A DNA stretch of 64,000 bases from Patescibacteria group bacterium (GCA_038064415.1 JBBTTD010000001.1:13738-77737); one strand, 5' to 3'; shown: positions 20,336 through 58,545, counted from the first letter of the stretch. Made by a program: numbers and translations. The notes: generated by a model not told the origin, from the sequence alone.

Positions 20336-20379
20336 CAAGGTCGGACCTTGGGTGATTTGGAGCTAAGGTCCGACCTTGA
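20336..20379. repeat. Palindromic element family 1: two AAGGTCGGACCTT-type units in inverted orientation
   Basis: CAAGGTCGGACCTTGGgtgatttggagCTAAGGTCCGACCTTG. The exact reverse complement of this 43-bp sequence recurs at 50806-50850. Confidence 0.8.
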
Positions 20380-20416
20380 TTTTACGAACTTCCTCCATAT
20401 TTGTTATACTATCTTC

Positions 20417-22582
20417 ATGATTCCAGACAAGTTTCTCAAGCCCTACGATCCTACCAGCACGGAAGACAGGATTTATGCCCTCTGGGAAAAGAGTGGCTTT
20501 TTCAATCCCGATAAATTGCCCGAGCGTAATAAAAAAGGCGAACCATTTTCCATAGTTTTGCCACCACCGAATGTCACTGGAGTTTTACATATGGGCTCGG
20601 CATTGATGCTTGCCATTGAGGATATTATGGTTCGCTACGCGCGAATGAAAGGGAAACAGACGCTTTGGATTCCTGGGACTGATCATGCCGCTATTGCCAC
20701 TCAAGCGGTTGTGGAAAAAGACATTCAAAGAAAAGAAGACAAATCTCGTCATGATCTCGGCAGGGAAGAAATGCTCCGACGTATTGGTACGCATGTTCAA
20801 ACTACCCATGACATTATTGTAAGTCAGATGCGTAAGATGGGCGCTTCAATTGATTGGTCTCGGGAAGCTTTCACTCTTGACGATAAGCGCAATCTGGCCG
20901 TTCGCACGGCTTTCAAAAAAATGTATGATGATGGTTTGATATACCGTGGTTATCGCGTAGTCAATTGGGATCCAAAAGGTCAGACTACTATTTCTGATGA
21001 TGAAATAGTGTACGAAACAAGAAAGACGAAACTTTACACCTTCAGGTACTCAAAAGATATACCTATTTCTATCTCCACGACGCGTCCGGAGACCAAATTG
21101 GGTGATACTGCTATCGCCGTAAATCCTGACGATCCGCGCTACAAAAAATATATCGGCGAGGAGTTTGACGCGGTCTTTGCTGGTGAACCGATTCACCTCA
21201 AAGTCATTGCCGATGCTTCAGTAGAATTAGAATTCGGCACCGGCGCTCTCGGTGTAACTCCCGCTCATTCAATTGCTGATTGGGAAATGGCCCAAAGGCA
21301 CAGTTTACCACTGAAACAAGTTATTAATGAATACGCAAAAATGACTGTTGGATTGGATGGCATAAAAGATAAAAAGACAACCGAAGCGCGCGAAGCCGTG
21401 GTTGACTGGCTCAAAAAAGAAGGTTTATTGGAGAAAGAAGAAGATATTGAACATAATATAAGTTTAGCGGAAAGAACGGGTGGAATCGTGGAACCATTGC
21501 CAAAATTGCAGTGGTTTGTGGCGGTTAATAGAGAATTCAAAAGAGAAGGGGTGACTTTCACATTAAAACAATTAATGACGCGTGTCGTTGAAACGGATCA
21601 AGTCCAATTCATTCCCGATCGTTTCAGAGATGTTTATCATCATTGGATCGGAAGTCTTCGTGATTGGTGTATTTCAAGGCAGATTTGGTATGGGCACAGG
21701 ATTCCAGTTTGGTACAAAAATCAGGAGATCTATGTCGGAGTTGAAGCGCCAAAAGGAAATGATTGGATCCAAGATGAAGACACTCTTGATACATGGTTTT
21801 CATCTGGTCTTTGGACTTTCTCAACTCTTGGTTGGCCAGACGAAAAAGAATTTAACATCAATCGCAAGTATCACCCAACCACTATTTTAGAAACTGGTTC
21901 TGATATTATCTTTTTTTGGGTAGCGCGCATGATTCTGATGAGTACTTATTTATTAGACGAAGTCCCGTTCAAGACGGTATATCTTCATGGTCTAGTTCGT
22001 GATGGTAAAGGTAGGAAAATAAGTAAGTCGCTCGGTAATAACATAGACCCTCTTGAAATGATCATTAAATATGGAGCTGACGCGGTGCGCATGGCACTTA
22101 TTGTAGCCGTCGGTCCTGGTAATGACAGTAAGGTTGATGAGCAGAAGATTAAGGCATATAAATTATTTAGTAACAAAATTTGGAATATTGCCAGATTTAT
22201 TTTGAGTGCAACCGAGAATGTCAAATATTCAGCTGAATTTTCAGAGTGGAGCGATACTGATAAGAAACACATTGAGGTCTTGAATGATTTGATTAAAGAG
22301 ATTACTTCCGAAATGGATGAATACAAGTTTTATTTAGTTGGCGAAAAGCTTTATCACTATGTCTGGCATGAATTTGCCGATAAAATCATTGAGGAAAGTA
22401 AGTCAATAATTGACGGCACTGACGAAAAAGTCAAAAATTCCCGTATTCAATTTTTGTTTTACGCTTTACGCGCGATCCTTAGACTACTTCATCCATTTAT
22501 GCCATTTGTGACAGAGGAGATTTGGCGGGAAGTGGGGAAGAGTAAATCATTATTGATGGTAGAGGAGTGGCCGAGATATTAA
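20417..22582 (+). CDS. valS: Valyl-tRNA synthetase (short form, no C-terminal coiled coil)
   Basis: PPPNVTGVLHMGSA (HIGH-region variant), the WIPGTDHAAIATQ motif and KISKSLGN (KMSKS). The start is moved to the Met at 20417 because the upstream part of the ORF overlaps the palindromic element. Confidence 0.8.
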   Translation: MIPDKFLKPYDPTSTEDRIYALWEKSGFFNPDKLPERNKKGEPFSIVLPPPNVTGVLHMGSALMLAIEDIMVRYARMKGKQTLWIPGTDHAAIATQAVVEKDIQRKEDKSRHDLGREEMLRRIGTHVQTTHDIIVSQMRKMGASIDWSREAFTLDDKRNLAVRTAFKKMYDDGLIYRGYRVVNWDPKGQTTISDDEIVYETRKTKLYTFRYSKDIPISISTTRPETKLGDTAIAVNPDDPRYKKYIGEEFDAVFAGEPIHLKVIADASVELEFGTGALGVTPAHSIADWEMAQRHSLPLKQVINEYAKMTVGLDGIKDKKTTEAREAVVDWLKKEGLLEKEEDIEHNISLAERTGGIVEPLPKLQWFVAVNREFKREGVTFTLKQLMTRVVETDQVQFIPDRFRDVYHHWIGSLRDWCISRQIWYGHRIPVWYKNQEIYVGVEAPKGNDWIQDEDTLDTWFSSGLWTFSTLGWPDEKEFNINRKYHPTTILETGSDIIFFWVARMILMSTYLLDEVPFKTVYLHGLVRDGKGRKISKSLGNNIDPLEMIIKYGADAVRMALIVAVGPGNDSKVDEQKIKAYKLFSNKIWNIARFILSATENVKYSAEFSEWSDTDKKHIEVLNDLIKEITSEMDEYKFYLVGEKLYHYVWHEFADKIIEESKSIIDGTDEKVKNSRIQFLFYALRAILRLLHPFMPFVTEEIWREVGKSKSLLMVEEWPRY

Positions 22583-28752: not shown

Positions 28753-29098
28753 AATTAAAGTTACATATTAATTACGACACGATTATTTATATTTGTGAGC
28801 TTGCAAAAAATTATCATATACGATTAAGATCTTTTCCTAATTGTATTTTTATCCACAGCTTCAAATGCTTGACAATTTTTTCGTATCTGATAGGGTACCA
28901 ACAACTTCGCAGATTGTGTTCTGCCTTAGCGGAGGATTATATAGGCCAGTATAACCCTACCCAGTGTTTATCACATCAATATAAGTATGTGAATTTAATA
29001 GCCGTTTTTTGAAAAAAACGGATTTTTTGCGTGATTACCAAAAGTATGGAAAAGTCAGATCAAATTTTGACTTAGGATTAATAACTTTTAATAAAATC

Positions 29099-32000
29099 AT
29101 GACTACCGCTTTTCGTCCGAAGAAATATTTTTCTAGTTATCAAGCACCTTTGACTGAAATGCCAAACTTGGTTGAAGCGCAATTGCTTTCATTCACACAT
29201 CTTGTTGAAAAGGGCATAGTTGGTCTTTTGGATGAATTTTCCCCGATTGAAGATTATGCTGGAAAAAAGTTTGAACTATCCATCGGCTCACCAGAACTTC
29301 AGCGTCCAAAATTTGATGAGCATTACGCGAAAGATAATAAGCTTAACTATGATGGTCAGATCAAGGTCAAGGTCACGCTCAAAAATAAAGTTTTAAATGT
29401 GGTCAAAGAACAAGAAATGTTTTTAGCTGATATTCCGCTAATGACTGACCACGGAACTTTCATCATCAATGGTGTTGAGCGCGTCATCACCCCTCAACTC
29501 GCTCGTTCCTTCGGAATCTTCTTTACGAGCAACGAAGTCAAAGGTAAAAATTATTTTGGCGCTAAAATCATTCCCGCTCGCGGAGTTTGGATGGAAATAG
29601 AAACTGACACTGACGGCACAATATATTGTCGTATTGATCGCAAGCGAAAATTCCCGGTAACCTCGCTTTTGCGTATTTTAGGCGCGGAGACAAATGAAGC
29701 TATCGTAGGTCTTTTTAAGGGTAATTTAGACGCTCAAAAGGTTATAGAGCTTACTTTGAGTAAGGACCATACCAAAACCAAGGATGAATCTTATATGGAG
29801 ATTCATAAAAGACTTCGTGATGGTGATTTAGCGACAGCTGAAAATGCTCGAAATTTCGTCCAGACACTCCTCAAAGAAGATCGTTATGATATTTCTAGAG
29901 TTGGCCGTTTTCGTTTCAACAAGCGTTTCGGTAAATCAATGGAAGAGAAAGAGCTTGAGCGACGCACACTATCTATTGATGACATTACGACGACTTTGGT
30001 TCATATTGTGACTTTGACGACAACTCCTGATACTCAACCAGACGATATTGATCACCTCGGCTCGCGCCGTGTCCGTTATGTTGGGGAATTACTTGAACAG
30101 CGTTTTCGTCTTGGTCTGACACAGATGAAGAGAAACATTCAGGATAAAATGTCCACTGTTGAGCCTGATGTTACTTTGCCTGTTTCATTTATATATCCTA
30201 GACCGCTTCAAGCACGTATCAAAGAGTTTTTCACCACCAACCAACTCTCTCAATTTATGGAGCAGGTGAATGCTCTTGGCGAAATTGAAAATCTCCGTCA
30301 GCTCACAGCACTTGGACCCGGAGGACTTTCGCGTGAGCGCGCTGGTTTTGAAGTTCGCGATGTTCATCCTTCACACTATGGCAGACTTTGTCCGATTCAC
30401 ACACCAGAAGGCCCAAACATTGGTCTAGTTTTGCGTTTGGCTATGTATTCTCGCATTAACGACTTCGGTATGATTGAAACTCCGTATGCCAAGGTTAAAG
30501 ACGGCAAGATAACCAAGGAAATTGTTTATATGAATGCTTTGGAAGAAGAAAATTTCCGCATTGCCCATGCCGCCACACCATTTGATGCTAGCGGAAATAT
30601 TACAGTTGATGAAGTGGAAGTCCGTATCAACGGTAAACCTGCTATGGCTACAAAAAAAGAAGTAAACTATATTGATGTCGCGACAAATCAAGCATTTTCT
30701 ATCGCCACTTCTCTTATTCCTTTTGTTAACCATGATGATGCTAATCGAGCACTCATGGGATCAAACATGTATAAACAAGCTACCCCTTGCTTAGTCCCAG
30801 AAGCACCATTCGTTGCTACCGGCATTGAAGCAAAAGCAGTCGCTGATACTGGCAGACTTGTTATTGCTCCTGAAGATGGTGAAGTTACTCATGTTGACGC
30901 CAAAAGAATTGTTTTCGTTACTAAAAAAGGCAAGAAGCATGAATATAAGCTAGTTCTTTTTTCCCGAACCAATGGTTTTACTGCTTTCCATCAGCGTCCG
31001 ATTGTTTCGGCAGGCGATAAAGTCAAAAAAGGAGATGTTCTGGCGGATACTTCAACTTCCGACAAAGGTCAAATTGCTCTTGGTCACAACGCTCTAGTGG
31101 CTTTCATGTCATGGTCAGGAAATAATTATGAGGACGCTATCATCCTTTCTGAAAGAGTAGTCAAGAATAGTAAGTGGAGTTCTATTCATATTGAAGAATT
31201 TGTAGTCAATGTCCGTGATACCAAACTTGGCCCAGAAGTTACTACTTGTGATATTCCCAATGTCGGTGAAGCCAAGCTTAAAAATCTTACTGAAGAAGGT
31301 ATCATCAGAATTGGCGCGGAAGTTAGACCTGGTGATATTTTAGTCGGAAAAATTTCTCCCAAAGGAGAGACACAACTTACGCCTGAAGAGCGTTTACTCC
31401 GTTCTATTTTCGGTGAAAAGGCGCGTGATGTGAAAGATACTTCCAAGCGCATGGAAAATGGCAAGCGCGGTCGTGTTATTTCCGTAAAGATTTTCTCACG
31501 CGAAAAAGGCGACAAACTAGAATCAGGAATTATCAAGAAAATTTACGTGGAGATTGCTCAAGTTCGTAATATTTCAGTTGGTGATAAAATGGCTGGTCGC
31601 CACGGCAACAAAGGTGTCATCTCAAAAATTCTTCCAGAAGAGGATATGCCATACATGGAAGATGGAAAACCGATTGATGTTATTTTGACCCCACTCGGCG
31701 TGCCTTCTCGTATGAACCTAGGCCAGATTCTAGAACTGCATCTTGGTTTGGCGGCCAATGAACTCGGATATCAAGCTATTGTTCCTCCCTTTGCCGGAGC
31801 GACTGATGCGGAGATTAAGGAGGAATTGGTTAAAGCTGGTTTTGATGCTTCTGGAAAAATGAAACTCCGAGACGGTAGGACGGGTGAACATTTTAGTCAG
31901 CCAATTGCGGTCGGTTACATGTATATTCTCAAATTACATCACATGGTGGAAGACAAAATTCACATGCGTTCAATTGGACCTTACTCTTTGATTACTCAAC

Positions 32001-32278
32001 AACCATTAGGCGGTAAGGCACAAGGTGGAGGCCAGCGTTTCGGAGAAATGGAAGTCTGGGCTTTGCTCGGTCACGGCGCCGCTCACACACTCCGTGAAAT
32101 ACTTACTGTTAAATCAGATGATATCATTGGTCGTTCGCAAACATTTGACGCTATCGTTAAAGGTGAGCGTCCGAAAGCGCCAAATCTACCAGCCTCATTC
32201 AATGTGCTTCTGAAAACCCTTCGCGGTCTGGCGTTAAATGTTGAGCTTATCAATAAACCTCGCGTTGAGGAGGAATAA
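29099..32278 (+). CDS. rpoB: DNA-directed RNA polymerase subunit beta
   Basis: Full set of RpoB conserved regions (GERVITPQLARS, the rifampicin-cluster region, NMQRQAVPL-like motifs, the C-terminal GGQRFGEMEVWAL). The start is placed at the Met at 29099; ORF 29009 extends further upstream. Confidence 0.9.
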   Translation: MTTAFRPKKYFSSYQAPLTEMPNLVEAQLLSFTHLVEKGIVGLLDEFSPIEDYAGKKFELSIGSPELQRPKFDEHYAKDNKLNYDGQIKVKVTLKNKVLNVVKEQEMFLADIPLMTDHGTFIINGVERVITPQLARSFGIFFTSNEVKGKNYFGAKIIPARGVWMEIETDTDGTIYCRIDRKRKFPVTSLLRILGAETNEAIVGLFKGNLDAQKVIELTLSKDHTKTKDESYMEIHKRLRDGDLATAENARNFVQTLLKEDRYDISRVGRFRFNKRFGKSMEEKELERRTLSIDDITTTLVHIVTLTTTPDTQPDDIDHLGSRRVRYVGELLEQRFRLGLTQMKRNIQDKMSTVEPDVTLPVSFIYPRPLQARIKEFFTTNQLSQFMEQVNALGEIENLRQLTALGPGGLSRERAGFEVRDVHPSHYGRLCPIHTPEGPNIGLVLRLAMYSRINDFGMIETPYAKVKDGKITKEIVYMNALEEENFRIAHAATPFDASGNITVDEVEVRINGKPAMATKKEVNYIDVATNQAFSIATSLIPFVNHDDANRALMGSNMYKQATPCLVPEAPFVATGIEAKAVADTGRLVIAPEDGEVTHVDAKRIVFVTKKGKKHEYKLVLFSRTNGFTAFHQRPIVSAGDKVKKGDVLADTSTSDKGQIALGHNALVAFMSWSGNNYEDAIILSERVVKNSKWSSIHIEEFVVNVRDTKLGPEVTTCDIPNVGEAKLKNLTEEGIIRIGAEVRPGDILVGKISPKGETQLTPEERLLRSIFGEKARDVKDTSKRMENGKRGRVISVKIFSREKGDKLESGIIKKIYVEIAQVRNISVGDKMAGRHGNKGVISKILPEEDMPYMEDGKPIDVILTPLGVPSRMNLGQILELHLGLAANELGYQAIVPPFAGATDAEIKEELVKAGFDASGKMKLRDGRTGEHFSQPIAVGYMYILKLHHMVEDKIHMRSIGPYSLITQQPLGGKAQGGGQRFGEMEVWALLGHGAAHTLREILTVKSDDIIGRSQTFDAIVKGERPKAPNLPASFNVLLKTLRGLALNVELINKPRVEEE

Positions 32279-32895: not shown

Positions 32896-36564
<3,669 letters not shown>

Positions 36565-42101: not shown

Positions 42102-43652
42102 ATGTTCAAGATTCAAAATCATAAATCAGGTCTAATCTTGGTAGACATCATTCTGGCGCTTACTTTAGCGACTTTGTTTGTCGTAATTATCACACAATCA
42201 TCGCGTAATCTGAGGGATGTTTTTGAGTCAGCGCGTGAACGAAATCGTTTGCTTGATGTCTATGAACAGCATGCAAGTGAATTTGAAGACCTAATGCCTT
42301 ATGAATCTCGCGTGATTACTTTTGACGCTGATGGATGGAATACTTCAACCACGACGATTGGTGCCATCGCGCGTTGGTATGGCAATGATCGAATTCAAAC
42401 CGATGTGACGATTTCCACTGAATCACCGGGAACATTCGCTACTTCAACAACTGGTTATTCACGACATATTACTTTTGATGTCATCAGAAACTTTCCATTT
42501 ACGAACATCAATAATTTTGCCGGGACGCCATTATGTTCAGTTGATTTTACGAACAAAGAGGTTGTTGGTTCGTACTCATTTCAGCGCGATCTCAATTTAA
42601 TTAATACTTCAACATTTTTATCATTAAAATCTCCTCAATCTTTAGTTCCTACGATCACTCCAATTACTTTACCAGTCAATCCATTATTACCTCTGACTGA
42701 TATTGAAGCGCGAAATGGCGTGGTTTATATTTCAAGCGATTCTCCACTTGCTTCAGACCCAGACTTATTTATTATTGATATTAAAGATCCCAAACACGCG
42801 CAAATTATTTCTTCAATAAATACCGGACCGGGAATAGCAAGCATAACTTTGGCTGGTAACCGCGTATTCGCGGCGGCGGCAAGTACAGCGACCCAGTTGC
42901 ATGTTATTCGTCTTGATGGCTTAAATTTGCCAATCTTGGAAAAGAAATATCAATTGCCTTTACCATATGCCACAGCTACTCCACCTTTGGCTAGTTCAAT
43001 TTTTTATAATAAAAACCATGTTTTTCTTGGTACGACAAAATGGGACGACAATGAGTTCTCAATTATTGATGTGAGTAATCCAGCCGATCCGATTCAAATT
43101 GGCGGATTAGAAACTGGTAGTCAGATTAATGATATTTTTGTACGAAATCATATCGCTTATATTACTGATTCAGATCAACAACAATTGAGTGTTGTAAATA
43201 TTCATAATCTATCCAATCCGAGTTTCTTGGCGTCATTTAGTCCGTCTGGTTGGCAACGGCAGGAAGGGAAAGCCCTCTCGTTTTTTGAAGATAGCTTGAA
43301 TATGACTAGAACTTCCGGTGGATTTAACATCAGACAAGATCACGAGCTTTTTTCTTGGGCTACAACATCATTGGCTGAATTAAATTCTGGGATTGTGCCA
43401 AGTGATTCATTTGCGCCAAAATCAGTTGATATTTCCGGCGGAGCTTATGGTGTGGTAACTGATCGATCTTATATCTATGTAGCGACGCGCCAGCTAAATA
43501 AAGAGTTTCAAATATTTGACCAGAATTTATCTACGACGACGGCAAAAACTTTTTCGTTGCCAGCTTTGCCGCAAATAATGACTTGTGACGGAGATTATTT
43601 ATATATTTTAGCTAATAATGCGCCCGTGATTTATCAGATTTTATTTAAATAA
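42102..43652 (+). CDS. Large pseudopilin-like protein (N-terminal hydrophobic pilin-type helix, beta-rich body)
   Basis: N-terminus KSGLILVDIILALTLATLFVVI resembles a class III signal with Asp at +5; the rest is predicted beta-rich. Confidence 0.45.
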   Translation: MFKIQNHKSGLILVDIILALTLATLFVVIITQSSRNLRDVFESARERNRLLDVYEQHASEFEDLMPYESRVITFDADGWNTSTTTIGAIARWYGNDRIQTDVTISTESPGTFATSTTGYSRHITFDVIRNFPFTNINNFAGTPLCSVDFTNKEVVGSYSFQRDLNLINTSTFLSLKSPQSLVPTITPITLPVNPLLPLTDIEARNGVVYISSDSPLASDPDLFIIDIKDPKHAQIISSINTGPGIASITLAGNRVFAAAASTATQLHVIRLDGLNLPILEKKYQLPLPYATATPPLASSIFYNKNHVFLGTTKWDDNEFSIIDVSNPADPIQIGGLETGSQINDIFVRNHIAYITDSDQQQLSVVNIHNLSNPSFLASFSPSGWQRQEGKALSFFEDSLNMTRTSGGFNIRQDHELFSWATTSLAELNSGIVPSDSFAPKSVDISGGAYGVVTDRSYIYVATRQLNKEFQIFDQNLSTTTAKTFSLPALPQIMTCDGDYLYILANNAPVIYQILFK

Positions 43653-46530: not shown

Positions 46531-49482
46531 ATGATTACACTTATGAAAAATTCTGGCGAAAAAGTCAATCCAAAAGCGTTAAAATTACCTGCTTATGACC
46601 ATTCAAAGATAGAACCTAAGTGGCAAAAACTTTGGGAAAAACAAAAGTTTGACCAGGCCAGAGAAGATCCAAAGAAAAAGAAGTTTTACGGTTTAATTGA
46701 ATTTCCGTATCCATCCGGCGAAGGACTGCATGTTGGACATATTCGCAGTAATACAGCCATGGATATTATTGCTCGAAAGCGTCGAAGAGAAGGCTATGAA
46801 GTTTTGTTTCCTATCGGTTGGGATGCTTTTGGTCTGCCAACCGAAAATTACGCTATTAAGACTGGTATTCAGCCCGCCATAGTTACCAAAAAAAACACTG
46901 ATACATTTCGCCGACAATTGAAAGCGCTGGGTTTTTCTTTTGATTGGTCGCGTGAAATAGATACGACTGATCCCAAATACTATAAATGGACGCAGTGGAT
47001 ATTTTTGCAATTCTTTAAAAAAGGGCTGGCTTATAAAAAGAAAATGGCTATCAATTGGTGTCCAAAGGATATGATTGGTCTAGCAAATGAAGAAGTTGTA
47101 AATGGTTGTTGTGAACGATGTGGCACGCCCGTGGAAAAACGAGAGAAGGAACAATGGATGCTGGCTATTACTAAATATGCCGATCGATTAGACAGAGATT
47201 TAGATGAAGTTGATTTTCTGGAAAAGATTAAAATTCAACAAAGGAATTGGATAGGGAAGAGTGAGGGTGCGGAGATTGGGTTTAAGTTTGTCATTCCCGC
47301 CCTTGATGGAAGTCGAGGACATGCTCCAACGGGAATCCAAGATCACATTGCGAATTTTGTCTTGCTTCATGGATTTACCGCCACGCCAGATGATGATTTT
47401 CACCCTTGGCTCAAGAAAAAACTTGAAAATTTAGGATATAAAGTGCAAGCGCCGAAATTGCCGAATACTGAAAAACCCACAGAAAATGAGCAGGTTGAAT
47501 TTGTCCTAGATAATGTCAAGTTTGATGAAAATACTGTCTTACTTGGTCATAGTCTTGGTTCTGTGGTTGCTTTAAAGGTTTTAGAAAAACTTAATAAAAA
47601 GATCGCAGGACTTGTGACTGTCGGTGGATTTATTGATACAAACTTCAAAGATCATGACAGAAATTTTGCTGAAAGATTTGGATGGGACTTTGATTTTAAT
47701 AAAATAAAATTAAATGTTAGTTTTATTCGTGTTTTACACGATAAAAATGATGTAGCGATTACTGATGGTCAAGCCAAGAGATTAGCCACTGCTTTGGGAG
47801 TAAATGTTATTGAGCGCATGGCTAATGAGGGTCATTTTTGCGCAAAAGAAGAACCAGCTATATTTGAAGTCATCATACCAAGTATAAAAGTCTTCACGAC
47901 TCGCCCAGATACATTATTTGGCGTGACTTATCTGGTTCTCGCGCCTGAACATCAATTGGTAAAAGAACTTTTGCCAAATGTTCAAAATAAGAAAGAAGTT
48001 GAAGATTATATTTCCAAAACTAAAAAGGAAACTGATATTGAACGCGCTGACGCTTCAAAAGAAAAAACAGGCGTTGAGTTGAAAGGAATTAAGGTTATAA
48101 ATCCAGCAAATAACGAAGAACTACCAGTTTGGATTGCTGATTATGTTTTGGTTGACTACGGCACTGGCGCTGTAATGGCTGTGCCGGCGCATGATGAGAG
48201 GGATAAACAATTTGCCCAAAAATATAGTCTGCCAACCAAAGAAATTATTCTCGCAGATAAAAAAGAAATAATTACTGAATTTGGAAAATCAGTTACCACC
48301 TACAAACTTCGTGACTGGGTGTTTTCACGCCAAAGATACTGGGGTGAGCCCATCCCTGTAGTGCATTGCGAACAATGTGGGATTGTTCCCGTGCCAGAAA
48401 AAGATTTGCCGGTTAAATTACCGAAAGTAAAAAATTATCAGCCGACGCAGACTGGAGAATCACCGCTAGCTTCAATTGGAAAGTGGGTGAATACTAAATG
48501 TCCGAAATGTAAAGGCAAAGCTCGTCGCGAAACAGATACAATGCCTCAATGGGCTGGCTCAAGCTGGTATTATCTGCGCTACGCTGATTCAAAAAATAGT
48601 AAAGTTTTTGCCGGTAAAGATAGACTGAAGTATTGGACGCCAGTAGACTGGTACAACGGTGGAATGGAGCATACAACATTGCATCTGCTTTATTCTCGTT
48701 TTTGGCATAAATTCTTATTTGATTTAGGTTTAGTGCCGACAAAAGAACCATATCAAAAAAGAACCTCACATGGACTCATTCTAGCCGAAGGTGGCGCTAA
48801 AATGTCAAAATCAAGAGATAATATTGTCAGTCCCGACGATATTGTGAAGATTGTTGGCGCGGACTCTTTGCGTCTTTACGAAATGTTTATGGGACCCTTT
48901 GACCAACCAATCGTCTGGAATACGGATAATATTGCCGGGGTCAGGAGGTTTATTGAGCGAGTGTGGAAAATGAGAGAAAAAGTCGTTCAAAAAATGGACG
49001 AAAAGATTGATGATTTTGTGTTGATCAACAAGATTATCCACAAAGCTATCAAAAAAGTCAGCGACGATATTGAAGCGATGAGATTTAATACTGCCATCAG
49101 CGCGCTCATGATTACATTCAATGAACTTGAAAAATTCAGAGTTGTTGATATAGAACAATATGGAGTTTTTCTTAAATTACTGGCACCATTTGCGCCACAT
49201 GTGACTGAAGAATTGTGGGCATCTCTGAATCATAAAAATTCTATTCATACGACTGAATGGCCGATGTATGATCCAGTTTTGGCGATTGATTCACAGACAA
49301 CTATCGTTGTCCAAATAAATGGCAAAATGCGTGGCTCATTCACTGTTCCAATTGATATCAGTAAGGAAGAATTAGAAAATCGCGCGCGGACATTACCAGA
49401 ATCCGCGAAGTGGTTGGAAGGGAAGAGTATCATGAAGATAGTTGTTGTTCCCAATAAGTTAGTCAATTTTGTCATAAAGTAG
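46531..49482 (+). CDS. leuS: Leucyl-tRNA synthetase with an inserted alpha/beta serine-hydrolase (YdeN/RBBP9-like) domain
   Basis: Class I motifs (HVGH, KMSKS), a CP1 editing domain (TTRPDTLFGVTYLVLAPEH) and a C-terminal anticodon-binding region. About 195 extra residues (aa 254-449) lie between NWIGKSEGAEIGF and the editing domain. They include LLHGFTATPDDDFHPWL, GHSLG (GxSxG), a conserved Asp and ANEGHF. Confidence 0.85.
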   Translation: MITLMKNSGEKVNPKALKLPAYDHSKIEPKWQKLWEKQKFDQAREDPKKKKFYGLIEFPYPSGEGLHVGHIRSNTAMDIIARKRRREGYEVLFPIGWDAFGLPTENYAIKTGIQPAIVTKKNTDTFRRQLKALGFSFDWSREIDTTDPKYYKWTQWIFLQFFKKGLAYKKKMAINWCPKDMIGLANEEVVNGCCERCGTPVEKREKEQWMLAITKYADRLDRDLDEVDFLEKIKIQQRNWIGKSEGAEIGFKFVIPALDGSRGHAPTGIQDHIANFVLLHGFTATPDDDFHPWLKKKLENLGYKVQAPKLPNTEKPTENEQVEFVLDNVKFDENTVLLGHSLGSVVALKVLEKLNKKIAGLVTVGGFIDTNFKDHDRNFAERFGWDFDFNKIKLNVSFIRVLHDKNDVAITDGQAKRLATALGVNVIERMANEGHFCAKEEPAIFEVIIPSIKVFTTRPDTLFGVTYLVLAPEHQLVKELLPNVQNKKEVEDYISKTKKETDIERADASKEKTGVELKGIKVINPANNEELPVWIADYVLVDYGTGAVMAVPAHDERDKQFAQKYSLPTKEIILADKKEIITEFGKSVTTYKLRDWVFSRQRYWGEPIPVVHCEQCGIVPVPEKDLPVKLPKVKNYQPTQTGESPLASIGKWVNTKCPKCKGKARRETDTMPQWAGSSWYYLRYADSKNSKVFAGKDRLKYWTPVDWYNGGMEHTTLHLLYSRFWHKFLFDLGLVPTKEPYQKRTSHGLILAEGGAKMSKSRDNIVSPDDIVKIVGADSLRLYEMFMGPFDQPIVWNTDNIAGVRRFIERVWKMREKVVQKMDEKIDDFVLINKIIHKAIKKVSDDIEAMRFNTAISALMITFNELEKFRVVDIEQYGVFLKLLAPFAPHVTEELWASLNHKNSIHTTEWPMYDPVLAIDSQTTIVVQINGKMRGSFTVPIDISKEELENRARTLPESAKWLEGKSIMKIVVVPNKLVNFVIK

Positions 49483-50850: not shown

Positions 50851-50932
50851 TTTTTTTAAATAGTCCTCGGCAATAAAAACATGTGTGCACTATTATTGTT
50901 TTTGGTTAAGCTGTTCATGTTATAATAGTGGC

Positions 50933-52219
50933 ATGCCCGTTGAACAATTAATTCCGTCATTGGTATCGGATTTTAAATCAAATATTCTGCCACAGGCGAT
51001 TCAATTCATCATAACTATTTCGCCGATACTTTTTGTCTTTATTATGGCCAAGATTTTTTGGCCAATCTGGGTCAGTTATGTAAGGTCCAAGAATTTTCTA
51101 TCATTGAAATATACAACGCTTGAGATAAAGTTACCTAAAGACACATTCAAGTCTCCATTAGCGATGGAAGTATTTCTGCAATCTTTGCACAACACCGCGG
51201 ACGGAAGTCTCTATGCCCAATATTGGAAAGGCGAGACCCGGCCATGGTATTCTTTGGAGTTGGTTTCCATTGAAGGACGAGTTAAGTTTTTTATTTGGAC
51301 GGAAGATAGACGCAAAGGTGGAGTGATATCAGGATTGTATTCACAGTTTCCAGGAGTTGAAGTTCATGAAAATGAAGATTATGCGCGATCAGTACATTTT
51401 GATCCAAACACAATGAAAATCTGGGGATGCGAGTTTAAATTTACCAGAGAAGATCCTTACCCAATTAAAACCTATGTTGATTATGGACTTGATAAAGATC
51501 CAAAAGAGGAGTTCAAAGTAGATCCAATGACGCCTTTGATTGAATTTTTAGGAAATGTCGGAACTAATCAACAGATTTGGTTACAAATCTTGTTTCGCGC
51601 CCACAAAAAAGAGCAAAGAAAACCTGGGCATTGGTTTAAAAAGACGGATTTGTGGCAAGATGAAGCAAAGGAATTAGTTAATGAAATTTTAATCCGTGAC
51701 GCCAAGACCAAAGTGTCGGGTGAAATAAATCCAGATACCGGATACAGTAAATCACCGACGATCTCCAAAGGTGAACAAAGTATCGTTGAATCAATTGAGA
51801 GAAGCGTGACTAAACTTGCTTTTGATACTGGCATCAGGGCGCTCTATATTTCTAAAAAAGAAGTATTTGATGGACCTTTCGGAATAGGTGGAATTATTGG
51901 CAATATGAAGCATTTCAATACAGAAAGTCTCAATGGTTTCAAACCTAATGGGGATGTTTGGCATAGTAGACTAGACGATCCTTGGAAGGATTATAATAAT
52001 ATTCGTCGAGACCGCTATGCTCGTGAAGCTTTGGCTACATACAAACGTCGATCATTTTTTTATCCCGCGCTGTATCCATTTAGTAGGAGTAAATCTATGA
52101 TACTAAATACCGAAGAATTGGCTACGGTATATCATTTTCCAGGATCCGTCGCCGCTACCCCATCACTGGATCGTATTCCATCAAAGAAAGCCGAGGCACC
52201 TTCAAATCTGCCAGTCTAA
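50933..52219 (+). CDS. Hypothetical membrane-anchored protein
   Basis: N-terminal TM helix, then a 400-aa soluble region with no Walker motif and no recognisable domain. The start is trimmed to MPVEQLIP. Confidence 0.45.
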   Translation: MPVEQLIPSLVSDFKSNILPQAIQFIITISPILFVFIMAKIFWPIWVSYVRSKNFLSLKYTTLEIKLPKDTFKSPLAMEVFLQSLHNTADGSLYAQYWKGETRPWYSLELVSIEGRVKFFIWTEDRRKGGVISGLYSQFPGVEVHENEDYARSVHFDPNTMKIWGCEFKFTREDPYPIKTYVDYGLDKDPKEEFKVDPMTPLIEFLGNVGTNQQIWLQILFRAHKKEQRKPGHWFKKTDLWQDEAKELVNEILIRDAKTKVSGEINPDTGYSKSPTISKGEQSIVESIERSVTKLAFDTGIRALYISKKEVFDGPFGIGGIIGNMKHFNTESLNGFKPNGDVWHSRLDDPWKDYNNIRRDRYAREALATYKRRSFFYPALYPFSRSKSMILNTEELATVYHFPGSVAATPSLDRIPSKKAEAPSNLPV

Positions 52220-56640: not shown

Positions 56641-58545
56641 ATGAACTCCTCCAAAATTCGCCGACGATTTCTGAACTTTTTTGAGAAAAGAGGGCATGCC
56701 ATTATTGACTCGGCTTCTTTGGTTACAACTGACGAAAAAAATGTGACTGATTCCACGCTTTTTAACACTGCTGGAATGCAGCCACTTGCGCCGTATTTAC
56801 TCGGTAAAATTCATCCAAAGGGTAATCGTCTCGCAGATGTCCAAAAATGTCTTCGTACAATTGATTTGGATGATGTCGGAGATAAAACTCACGCCACCTT
56901 TTTTGAGATGCTAGGCAACTGGTCACTTGGTGATTATTTCAAAAAAGATGCTATCAATTGGAGTTATGAATTTTTGACTGACAAGAATGAAGGGCTTGGT
57001 CTTGATCCGAGTAGGCTTTATGTAACTGTTTTTGAAGGTAACTCCAACAGTCCAAAAGATGATGAAGCGGTTGAAATTTGGCAAGAGGTGTTTGCGAAAA
57101 ATAGTGTTGATATTGGTAACGATACCTCTAATATTAGAAATTCAGGACGTATTTTCTATATGCCAGCGAATGCGAATTGGTGGGAGGCAGGTGAAAATGG
57201 ACCATGTGGTCCAGATACGGAGATGTATTATGATATCACCGGTAAATTTGGGGGTAAGTGTTTGACCAAAGAGCAATTCATTGAAGCTGAAAGTCAAAAA
57301 GAAATTGTTGAGGTCTGGAATGATGTCTTTATGCAATATGAAAAGAAAAATGGCAAAATTGTCGGTAAATTGGCAAAGCCGTCAGTTGATACTGGCGCCG
57401 GATTGGAAAGATTGGCAATGATTATGCAGGGCGTGGATAATATTTATGAGACGGATTTGTTGAAGCCGGTTATGGATAATATTGAACAGAAAAAAAACAA
57501 AAAACATTTACAAGATTGGGATATTAAATCAGTTAGAATCATAGCGGATCATGTGAGGGCCGCAATATTTCTAATTGCTGATGGTGTAATCCCGTCTAAT
57601 ATAGGTAGAGGATATGTTCTACGTAAGTTGATCCGTAGAGCGATTCGCCAACAGAAACTTATTAAGTTAGAAATCAGCAATTTATCAGAATTTGTTCCTA
57701 TTGTTATTGAAATCTATAGGAAAACTTATCCTACTCTTGTTAGAAAGGAAAGACAAATCAAGGAAATTTTTAGTCAAGAAGGTGGCAAATTTATACAGGT
57801 TCTTCATAGTGGTGATCTTGAAATTGATGATTTAATCAAGAAAGCGATACATGAGAAGAGATCAATTTCTGGAAAGGAATCTTTTATTTTATACTCATCG
57901 TATGGATTTCCGATCGAAGAAACAGTTAAAATAGCAAAGACTAAAGGGATTGATGTTGACATTGTGGGATTTGAAGATGAATTCAAAAAACACCAAGAAC
58001 TTTCTCGCTCTGGCGCTGAACAAAAATTCAAGGGCGGTCTGGCTAACTCGCAAGATGAGATGGTTGTCAGATATCACACCGCTACTCATTTACTACATCA
58101 AGCTCTGCATGATGTTTTAGGTGAAGGCGCTAATCAAAAAGGCTCTAATATCACTAAAGAACGCCTGCGTTTTGATTTTTCCCATTCTGTTAGAATGGCA
58201 GATGAACAAAAAAAACGCGTTGAGGATATTGTCAATCAGAAAATCAATGAAGCATTACCCGTGAATAATGTTATTTTATCTCGCGAAGATGCCGAAAAGA
58301 CTGGCGCGCGACACTTTTTTGGAGAAAAATACGGAGATCAGATTTCAATCTTTTTTGTCGGTCACGCTTCTAGACCACCAACTATTGCTGAATTGAAAAA
58401 TGCCTATTCAAAAGAATTTTGTGGTGGACCTCATGTCAAAAATACTAAGGAACTTACCGGACCAGAAGGGAAGTGGATGTTCAAAATACAAAAAGAAGAA
58501 GCAGTCGCGCAAGGGATAAGAAGGATTAAGGCGGTATTGAATTGA
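56641..58545 (+). CDS. alaS: Alanyl-tRNA synthetase, short form lacking the C-Ala domain
   Basis: Class II catalytic core and an editing domain with the HxxxH motif (HTATHLLHQALH). Ends at 634 aa. Confidence 0.85.
   Translation: MNSSKIRRRFLNFFEKRGHAIIDSASLVTTDEKNVTDSTLFNTAGMQPLAPYLLGKIHPKGNRLADVQKCLRTIDLDDVGDKTHATFFEMLGNWSLGDYFKKDAINWSYEFLTDKNEGLGLDPSRLYVTVFEGNSNSPKDDEAVEIWQEVFAKNSVDIGNDTSNIRNSGRIFYMPANANWWEAGENGPCGPDTEMYYDITGKFGGKCLTKEQFIEAESQKEIVEVWNDVFMQYEKKNGKIVGKLAKPSVDTGAGLERLAMIMQGVDNIYETDLLKPVMDNIEQKKNKKHLQDWDIKSVRIIADHVRAAIFLIADGVIPSNIGRGYVLRKLIRRAIRQQKLIKLEISNLSEFVPIVIEIYRKTYPTLVRKERQIKEIFSQEGGKFIQVLHSGDLEIDDLIKKAIHEKRSISGKESFILYSSYGFPIEETVKIAKTKGIDVDIVGFEDEFKKHQELSRSGAEQKFKGGLANSQDEMVVRYHTATHLLHQALHDVLGEGANQKGSNITKERLRFDFSHSVRMADEQKKRVEDIVNQKINEALPVNNVILSREDAEKTGARHFFGEKYGDQISIFFVGHASRPPTIAELKNAYSKEFCGGPHVKNTKELTGPEGKWMFKIQKEEAVAQGIRRIKAVLN

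Follow-up and report, generated by a model that had tools for sequence, protein, structure and literature searches.

Proofreading by aminoacyl-tRNA synthetases (aaRSs) is textbook knowledge, and the folds that carry it out form a short, closed list. In the class Ia enzymes for leucine, isoleucine, and valine (LeuRS, IleRS, and ValRS), wrong aminoacyl products are cleared by CP1, a hydrolytic domain set in the Rossmann-fold core that has no serine nucleophile. The serine hydrolase family PF06821 includes YdeN of B. subtilis and human RBBP9; to our knowledge, RBBP9 is its only biochemically characterized member, and we know of no function for the bacterial ones. As an aminopeptidase, RBBP9 becomes acylated by single amino acids (Leu/Ile, Met, Phe, Tyr, and Trp), for which their free alpha-amine is needed (PMC8866121); it has also been reported as a valacyclovir-activating enzyme (Shenoy 2020, as cited in PMC7730578). 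Here, we describe the leuS gene of an ultra-small groundwater bacterium of the Patescibacteria group (GCA_038064415.1), located on a stretch of 64,000 nucleotides (JBBTTD010000001.1:13738-77737, hereafter the window), in which a predicted YdeN/RBBP9-type serine hydrolase domain is nested inside CP1. Domains of the same subfamily are almost always found within LeuRS or encoded just upstream of it.

RESULTS

A predicted serine hydrolase domain lies within CP1

An earlier note, made from the sequence of the window alone, had proposed that leuS carries an in-frame insertion of a complete hydrolase domain. In line with this, the gene is a single open reading frame (ORF) without internal stop or frameshift, its 983-residue product is continuous, and the LeuRS motifs flanking the insert are intact. 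The gene and the features of the insert are as follows (coordinates are those of the window).

46531 to 49482, + strand: leuS, bacterial-type leucyl-tRNA synthetase, 983 residues plus stop (ORF, TIGR00396, alignment to T. thermophilus LeuRS)
47284 to 47352, + strand: N-side linker, residues 252-274 (insert alignment, model confidence)
47353 to 47874, + strand: YdeN/RBBP9-type alpha/beta serine hydrolase domain, residues 275-448 (PF06821 at residues 277-440, phmmer, Foldseek, model confidence 92-97)
47545 to 47559, + strand: nucleophile elbow G339-H-S341-L-G343, aligned with RBBP9 Ser75; Ser341 codon at 47551-47553
47749 to 47751, + strand: predicted catalytic acid Asp407, aligned with RBBP9 Asp138
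47833 to 47835, + strand: predicted catalytic His435, aligned with RBBP9 His165

Alignment to T. thermophilus LeuRS matched residues 22-251 of the window protein to residues 4-234 and residues 452-573 to residues 243-362. Between these blocks, 200 residues (252-451, nucleotides 47284-47883) stand opposite 8 in T. thermophilus (235-242), which confirms the boundaries of the insertion and gives approximately 192 extra residues, close to the 195 first estimated. The position assigned to the insert had to be corrected. It had been placed just upstream of CP1; in the full-length model it instead occupies the loop of the first CP1 beta-hairpin, between the strands at residues 244-253 and 451-456, and is therefore inside the editing domain. 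The match to the editing-domain profile PF13603 picks up past the insert at profile position 22, and the threonine-rich editing peptide TTRPDT starts five residues after it.

Profile, sequence, and structure searches agreed in assigning the insert to the YdeN/RBBP9 family, as had been claimed. The PF06821 (Ser_hydrolase) profile matched the whole protein with 42.8 bits (E = 7e-11) and the isolated segment with 46.5 bits (E = 5e-12), against a gathering score of 22, and the match spanned profile positions 2-158 of 172. A phmmer search of Protein Data Bank (PDB) sequences recovered B. subtilis YdeN (1UXO, E = 2e-11) and human RBBP9 (2QS9, E = 2.5e-8; 9FCR, E of about 2e-8) over the whole length of the domain. 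An AlphaFold2 model of the insert alone had a predicted local distance difference test (pLDDT) score of 90.1, and its top Foldseek matches were 1UXO, 2QS9, 7OEX, and 9FCR, with a template modelling (TM) score of 0.84, a root mean square deviation of 2.4 to 2.6 Å, and E of about 3e-13. Furthermore, the insert is the most confident region of the full-length model (pLDDT, 92-97). Besides the profile score, family membership is seen in the compact, lid-less fold of approximately 180 to 190 residues and in the positions of the Ser-Asp-His triad with its GxSxG elbow. Every motif cited in the earlier note is present: LLHGFTATPDDDFHPWLKK (residues 278-296), GHSLG (residues 339-343), KND407, and NEGH435F. 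Judged by sequence and predicted fold, these findings show that the insert is an intact serine hydrolase domain with the triad Ser341-Asp407-His435. The residues that line its pocket by alignment (L342, F367, F372, A409, and I410) are hydrophobic. No homology was found between the insert and the known aaRS editing modules (CP1, INS/YbaK, AlaX/second additional domain, DTD-like, and B3/B4), the family and structure searches returning alpha/beta hydrolases only; if the insert edits, it would therefore be a new kind of editing module.

The earlier note had also held that the insert is neither an intein nor the mark of a split gene. A Pfam scan of the window protein returned no Hint or intein family, and splice residues are absent at the junctions GAEIGF|KFV and IIPSIK|VFT, with neither an N-terminal Cys/Ser nor a C-terminal His-Asn. 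Together with the single frame, this ruled out an intein or a split gene. The same protein, differing only by A81T, was independently assembled in ENA, NCBI, and Logan data (six contigs of up to 160 kb), one source of the near-identical protein being a Hainich groundwater metagenome from a 0.1 µm filter. An assembly chimera or a sequencing frameshift was ruled out on the same grounds.

Approximately 17 linker residues on the N-side, VIPALDGSRGHAPTGIQDH (residues 254-272, nucleotides 47290-47346), are unique to the window protein and missing in the 48 other inserts aligned at this site, and the linker is predicted to be disordered at residues 258-269 (pLDDT below 50). The segment from His435 to VFTTRPDT, on the other side, has one length across all 49 aligned inserts. 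The GC content at third codon positions (GC3) of the insert (47284-47880) is 0.27, versus 0.33 and 0.36 in the flanking LeuRS parts, and its overall GC content is 0.372, versus 0.39 to 0.40 in the flanks and 0.396 in the whole window.

The host LeuRS retains its catalytic and editing residues

The host protein is a bacterial-type LeuRS, matching the TIGR00396 leuS_bact equivalog with 959 bits (cutoff, 548.4) and T. thermophilus LeuRS with E = 1.5e-205. Its full-length model (pLDDT, 86.1; predicted TM score, 0.75) superposes on LeuRS structures with TM scores of 0.75 to 0.81. The parts of the synthetase outside the insert are arranged as follows.

46531 to 47283, + strand: N-terminal half of the catalytic core, residues 1-251, with last strand GAEIGF (aligned to T. 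thermophilus 4-234; PF00133 at residues 30-234)
46729 to 46740, + strand: HIGH motif HVGH, residues 67-70 (H67, G69, and H70 invariant in 60 homologues)
47881 to 48270, + strand: rest of the CP1 editing domain, residues 451-580 (PF13603 at residues 451-579; aligned to T. thermophilus 243-362)
47896 to 47913, + strand: threonine-rich peptide TTRPDT, residues 456-461 (T456-D460 at least 90% conserved, T461 invariant)
48193 to 48204, + strand: D555/D558 of AHDERD (D555, R557, and D558 invariant)
48271 to 49479, + strand: C-terminal half of the catalytic core, anticodon-binding domain, and C-terminal domain (aligned to T. thermophilus 410-579 and 635-877; PF08264 at residues 834-944)
48799 to 48813, + strand: KMSKS, residues 757-761 (K757-S761 invariant in 60 homologues)

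The CP1 residues T461, D555, R557, and D558 are unchanging across the 60 LeuRS sequences, whether or not these carry an insert. This ruled out the hydrolase as a substitute for a decayed CP1 and suggests that it adds to CP1 rather than replacing it. PF13603 matched with 182.8 bits over profile positions 22-146; the C-terminal part of CP1 (profile positions 147-185) is absent from the window LeuRS, as is the leucine-specific domain, the alignment having no counterpart of T. thermophilus residues 580-634.

The insert recurs among LeuRS relatives as one of several modules

A survey of related proteins found that the same insertion recurs. Insertions were mapped in the best 120 of the thousands of LeuRS sequences recovered by a full-length search, relative to a baseline of 766 residues. 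The hydrolase occupies the identical site in 49 of these 120 nearest LeuRS, and more than 70 homologues have the same LeuRS-plus-hydrolase architecture. At least five insertion sites were found among the relatives, whose lengths range from 766 to 1518 residues.

Site A, baseline 202-212: NUDIX, sometimes two in tandem (P0046)
Site B, baseline 238: YdeN-type hydrolase, in 49 of 120; the site used in the window
Site C, baseline 362-366: NUDIX, in 63 of 120
Site D, baseline 406-408: hydrolase (P0097) or an unassigned domain of about 135 residues (P0119), in 2 of 120
Site E, baseline approximately 450: HAD, in 10 of 120

The largest relative (P0113, 1518 residues) carries NUDIX, hydrolase, NUDIX, and HAD modules. 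The implication of the earlier note that the insertion is a singular oddity was not supported: it is typical of the lineage, occurring in dozens of Patescibacteria and DPANN LeuRS sequences, and is one of at least five modular sites. The refuting case named in the note, a lineage-typical insertion lacking similarity to a hydrolase fold, does not apply, as the fold of the insert is that of a hydrolase.

Inheritance of the modules was assessed by parsimony on a neighbor-joining tree built from the host columns. The site B insert requires 9 changes, versus 38 (minimum, 30) when shuffled, while the NUDIX module requires 26 versus 40, indicating frequent gain and loss. The site B insert thus appears to have been inherited mostly vertically, with some gains or losses. 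The inserts at this site have a mean identity of 43%. In two of the relatives (P0076 and P0085), the insertion continues past the hydrolase with a DUF559/PF18741 Vsr-like endonuclease-type domain, which may hint at mobility. Eleven sequences in which a split LeuRS seemed to start with the hydrolase were not used as evidence, as they look like truncated gene calls; most of the ten inspected begin at an internal Met or a non-Met residue (for example, MQKNWIGRSEG and WLKKELE).

Insert-bearing proteins are publicly annotated as leucyl-tRNA synthetase or class I tRNA ligase family protein, and one JGI record is labelled leucyl-tRNA synthetase/ADP-ribose pyrophosphatase/predicted esterase. Full-text literature searches turned up no account of a LeuRS that carries hydrolase, NUDIX, or HAD insertions. 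The window gene is an ordinary member of an apparently undescribed, widespread architecture.

The insert belongs to a distinct hydrolase subfamily

To place the insert among its relatives, a profile of the insert and its free-standing relatives was searched exhaustively against approximately 1.8 billion cluster representatives, which yielded 4198 matches, 264 of them below 1e-30. The best 150 cluster representatives and the earlier matches gave 204 domains, which were clustered by average-linkage identity. Two groups emerged: an "embedded" group of 115 domains, including the window insert, and 85 ordinary free-standing proteins of approximately 190 residues. The embedded group comprises inserts at LeuRS site B and site D, single cases in ValRS, AlaRS, SecA, and TsaD, and about 20 short proteins. 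Within the best 150 representatives, LeuRS is by far the commonest host; the profile was built from LeuRS-associated members and favors LeuRS-linked relatives. Site D, just after YWGEPIPxxHCxxC, carries the insertion in at least eight LeuRS. The ordinary free-standing group includes a few terminal fusions, to adenylate kinase, a cytidylate-kinase-like protein, NUDIX, and peptidase S51. Hosts other than LeuRS (P0172, P0196, P0145, and P0180) carry in-frame inserts of the embedded subfamily with 35 to 42% identity to that of the window, located as follows.

ValRS: in-frame insert at residues 655-827
AlaRS: in-frame insert at residues 414-600, between the catalytic and editing parts
TsaD/Kae1: in-frame insert at residues 186-358
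SecA fragment: in-frame insert

Most of these hosts (ValRS, AlaRS, and TsaD) handle acyl-adenylates and tRNA. Across the 115 members of the embedded group, the nucleophile Ser is conserved in 98%, the His in 97%, and an acidic residue in 93% (Asp in 59%, Glu in 34%), compared with Asp in 100% of the free-standing relatives. Judged by this conservation, the predicted triad is under purifying selection. Relative to ordinary YdeN-like proteins, the embedded group also has a signature of its own, consisting of Q321, D404, F290, W385, and E441 plus a five-residue loop insertion.

Free-standing members of the subfamily are encoded beside leuS

Genomic coupling to leuS was examined in a scan of GTDB genomes by a single peptide pattern, which under-samples inserts with other elbow contexts. 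At 41% or higher identity to the insert, 25 of 26 loci lie inside LeuRS, and the 26th (L011) is a free-standing gene beside leuS. In contrast, LeuRS was found in the flanks of 0 of 54 loci at 38% or lower identity, 36 of which had full flanks of 3.5 kb on both sides. Free-standing members of the embedded group have LeuRS nearby in 6 of 6 informative contexts, lying at most 1.7 kb upstream of leuS; two more contexts were uninformative.

P0132: free-standing hydrolase, 6 nucleotides upstream of leuS
P0004: free-standing hydrolase, 25 nucleotides upstream of leuS
P0133: free-standing hydrolase, 37 nucleotides upstream of leuS
P0003 (= L011): free-standing hydrolase, 1.3 kb upstream of leuS with one gene between
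P0143: free-standing hydrolase, 1.35 kb upstream of leuS
P0001 (L082, Pacearchaeota): free-standing hydrolase, first gene of a packed operon ending in an archaeal-type LeuRS

The Pacearchaeota operon (L082:6001-10882, JAHZTO010004402.1) consists of five genes whose stops and starts overlap or abut, encoding the YdeN-type hydrolase (182 residues), a Ser_hydrolase (192 residues), a YbaK-like tRNA_edit protein (162 residues), a Ham1-like nucleoside triphosphate (NTP) pyrophosphatase (205 residues), and LeuRS (883 residues). This LeuRS is of the archaeal type (TIGR00395, 784 bits). At the locus with one intervening gene, a 391- to 409-residue protein without Pfam match is encoded between hydrolase and leuS (L011:2907-4136 = L086:970-2145; the contigs are identical over the protein). 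Genes for ribosomal proteins L13 and S9 lie close by in L011, L083, and L092.

Loci with the insert in LeuRS include metagenome-assembled genomes (MAGs) labelled Woesearchaeota, Pacearchaeota, and Nanoarchaeota, the archaeal assignment resting on MAG labels plus one neighboring marker gene. Such DPANN-labelled MAGs (L004, L005, L007-L010, L013, and L024) encode a bacterial-type LeuRS with the same insert, and in L009 a gene for the archaeal tRNA-intron endonuclease adjoins the insert-bearing LeuRS gene. These assignments imply that the decorated LeuRS gene has moved between domains of life. Collectively, these results define a distinct hydrolase subfamily of Patescibacteria and DPANN that is almost always tied to LeuRS, by insertion at site B, by insertion at a second site, or as a gene upstream.

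Other genes in the window

Two other aaRSs encoded in the window are compact and have no inserted enzyme domain: a 744-residue class I synthetase of the Val/Ile type (20348-22582) and a 634-residue AlaRS (56641-58545). The genome therefore does not decorate every synthetase. RpoB (29009-32278) and RpoC (32896-36564) also appear compact. A 516-residue ORF at 42102-43652 has no Pfam match, and a 444-residue ORF downstream of a sigma-factor gene (50885-52219) matched only DUF8128, in an equivalent contig.

DISCUSSION

A possible second clean-up activity of LeuRS

The reading that we favor, tentatively and as somewhat short of probable, is that the domain is an aminoacyl-ester or aminoacyl-amide hydrolase that would give LeuRS a second clean-up activity. 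A second hydrolytic, deacylase-like activity had been suggested in the earlier note, and it becomes more plausible because the subfamily is recurrently coupled to LeuRS in genomes and because RBBP9 forms single-amino-acid acyl-enzymes. Valacyclovir is the valyl ester of a nucleoside analogue. At the 3' end of aminoacyl-tRNA and in the aminoacyl-adenylates, the aminoacyl group is carried by adenosine or AMP. A hydrolase of such compounds is thus favored by the chemistry of RBBP9, by the nature of the tRNA 3' end and of the adenylates, and by the ValRS, AlaRS, and TsaD hosts. It draws as well on the conserved triad, the use of two insertion sites, the mostly vertical retention of the insert, the fixed junction, the intact CP1 residues, and the compactness of the other aaRSs in the window. 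The domain would then be an active hydrolase working with LeuRS and not a passive passenger. By analogy with RBBP9, it would attack the carbonyl of a single hydrophobic alpha-amino acid with a free amine, and its likeliest substrates would be aminoacyl esters or anhydrides of a nucleoside or nucleotide. Candidate targets are the 3' end of mischarged tRNA(Leu) and released non-cognate aminoacyl-adenylates or by-products. Such a second quality-control activity may have a specificity complementary to that of CP1, and it could act in cis when the domain is inserted and in trans when it is encoded alongside.

A wider proposal, which we regard as distinctly unlikely as a whole, is that LeuRS of Patescibacteria and DPANN serves as a scaffold for proofreading or damage-control hydrolases (YdeN-type esterase, NUDIX, and HAD), among which the YdeN/RBBP9-type domain would be a new serine-nucleophile editing module that deacylates mischarged tRNA(Leu) or destroys non-cognate aminoacyl-adenylates, in cis or in trans.

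Several observations weigh against a role in aminoacyl clean-up. Glu108 of RBBP9, which anchors the alpha-amine, aligns with the non-conserved R377, in a loop of uncertain alignment. SecA, a protein unconnected with aminoacyl esters, also carries an insert of the subfamily, and the presence of the subfamily in TsaD likewise speaks against a deacylase-like function. The NUDIX, HAD, and DUF559 endonuclease-like modules in other LeuRS loops fit permissive loops with passengers at least as well. The pairwise identities of insert and host correlate weakly (r = 0.25), the host identities spanning only 0.61 to 0.82, a comparison less informative than the parsimony analysis, and one homologue (P0120) has GHNLG and has thus lost the nucleophile. 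Finally, adjacency to leuS could partly reflect descent, by fission or fusion, and not joint function. The homologue without the nucleophile may itself be a pseudo-enzyme derivative of the insert.

Alternative explanations

The main alternative is a passenger, in which case the domain is an autonomous housekeeping or "house-cleaning" enzyme lodged in a permissive loop of an essential, constitutive gene, expressed without a promoter of its own in a streamlined genome and uncoupled from leucylation and editing. We consider this somewhat unlikely. It draws strength from the way in which unrelated small enzymes gather at five LeuRS loops (NUDIX at two sites, HAD, a DUF559-like endonuclease, and an unassigned domain) in many combinations and in proteins of up to 1518 residues; from the frequent gain and loss of NUDIX; from the SecA, TsaD, ValRS, and AlaRS hosts and the fusions of distant relatives to adenylate kinase, a cytidylate-kinase-like protein, NUDIX, and peptidase S51; and from the free-standing forms, whose existence means that the domain works without LeuRS. 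However, all six informative free-standing members lie beside leuS, even where it encodes an archaeal-type LeuRS, compared with none of the 54 distant relatives, and the use of two insertion sites in one host protein points to selection for the pairing. The fixed junction length, the lack of inserts in the two other aaRSs of the window, and the predominance of LeuRS among the hosts of the best 150 representatives, though that search favors LeuRS-linked relatives, also argue against an uncoupled passenger. Patescibacteria and DPANN have minimal biosynthesis, and the insert-bearing organisms are groundwater members of these groups, which agrees with a role in amino-acid supply: an RBBP9-like aminopeptidase would release hydrophobic amino acids, chiefly leucine, from the N-termini of scavenged peptides, and the link to LeuRS would serve co-regulation or local supply in hosts unable to make amino acids. 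The hydrophobic pocket, the one relative fused to peptidase S51, and the Leu/Ile, Met, Phe, Tyr, and Trp acyl-enzymes of the RBBP9 aminopeptidase (PMC8866121) are consistent with this role. We nevertheless find it improbable, as it leaves unexplained the insertion into an editing domain, the operon with a YbaK-like deacylase, and the ValRS, AlaRS, and TsaD hosts, and there is little obvious gain from channelling a free amino acid.

A selfish in-frame element, intein-like or of the homing type, directed at conserved positions in essential genes and no more than tolerated by its host appears very improbable. The aaRS, SecA, and TsaD hosts do resemble typical intein hosts, several insertion sites are in use, two relatives carry a DUF559-type endonuclease-like domain behind the hydrolase, and the GC3 of the insert is slightly lower than that of its flanks. 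Yet the insert has neither a Hint/intein domain nor splice-junction residues, most inserts contain no nuclease, and the triad of an unrelated enzyme is conserved; inheritance is mostly vertical, and a mean insert identity of 43% indicates an old element and not one spreading recently. Hardly credible, in our view, is an artefactual fusion of two genes by assembly or sequencing, or a decayed, non-catalytic spacer. Such a pseudo-domain would accord with the Asn that replaces the nucleophile in P0120 and with the disordered N-side linker of the window protein, but it is contradicted by the same 983-residue protein in independent assemblies, by more than 70 homologues with the same architecture, by a triad that is intact here and 93 to 98% conserved, and by the confident domain model.

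Significance and comparison with known systems

A serine hydrolase lodged in the LeuRS editing domain with its catalytic residues intact would point either to proofreading by a new chemistry or to a strategy, general among ultra-small symbionts, of nesting clean-up enzymes in essential genes. The case rests on recurrence, at two insertion sites and as a neighboring gene, with bacterial- and archaeal-type LeuRS, and in both Patescibacteria and DPANN. PF06821 thereby gains a concrete partner, LeuRS, and candidate substrates, the aminoacyl esters.

YdeN (1UXO) and RBBP9 (2QS9/7OEX) share with the insert the same minimal, lid-less fold of about 180 residues, the GHSxG elbow, and the positions of the Asp and His. 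They differ in being free-standing, whereas the insert is embedded in LeuRS and belongs to a separate subfamily with approximately 21 to 26% identity to them, in which Q321 replaces Trp, D404 replaces Ser, a five-residue loop is inserted, and Glu108 of RBBP9 is not recognizably kept. CP1, within which the new domain is nested, is universal and unrelated in fold and chemistry, whereas the hydrolase insert is limited to some LeuRS of Patescibacteria and DPANN.

Editing by class I synthetases yields homocysteine thiolactone as a by-product. BPHL is an alpha/beta serine hydrolase whose specificity, as described in PMC4198189, is for homocysteine thiolactone and for nucleoside analogues esterified with alpha-amino acids, and it illustrates that this fold can serve the clean-up of aminoacyl esters or thioesters. 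Its likeness to the insert is one of chemistry only, as BPHL comes from another alpha/beta hydrolase family and was retrieved by neither the sequence nor the fold searches with the insert. A curated precedent for a class Ia synthetase with an extra small-molecule enzyme domain is IleRS with GNAT (NF040702, ileS_w_GNAT), which differs in both the enzyme class and the synthetase; the window protein scores 77 bits against a cutoff of 1999 and is not a member. The nearest analogy is offered by the INS domain of ProRS and the free-standing YbaK/ProX proteins (PF04073). These have a different fold and a demonstrated aminoacyl-tRNA deacylase activity, whereas for the insert such an activity is a prediction. 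The evolutionary pattern is the same, with a hydrolytic module that occurs within the synthetase in some cases and as a gene of its own in others, and in the Pacearchaeota operon a YbaK-like gene stands together with the free hydrolase and LeuRS.

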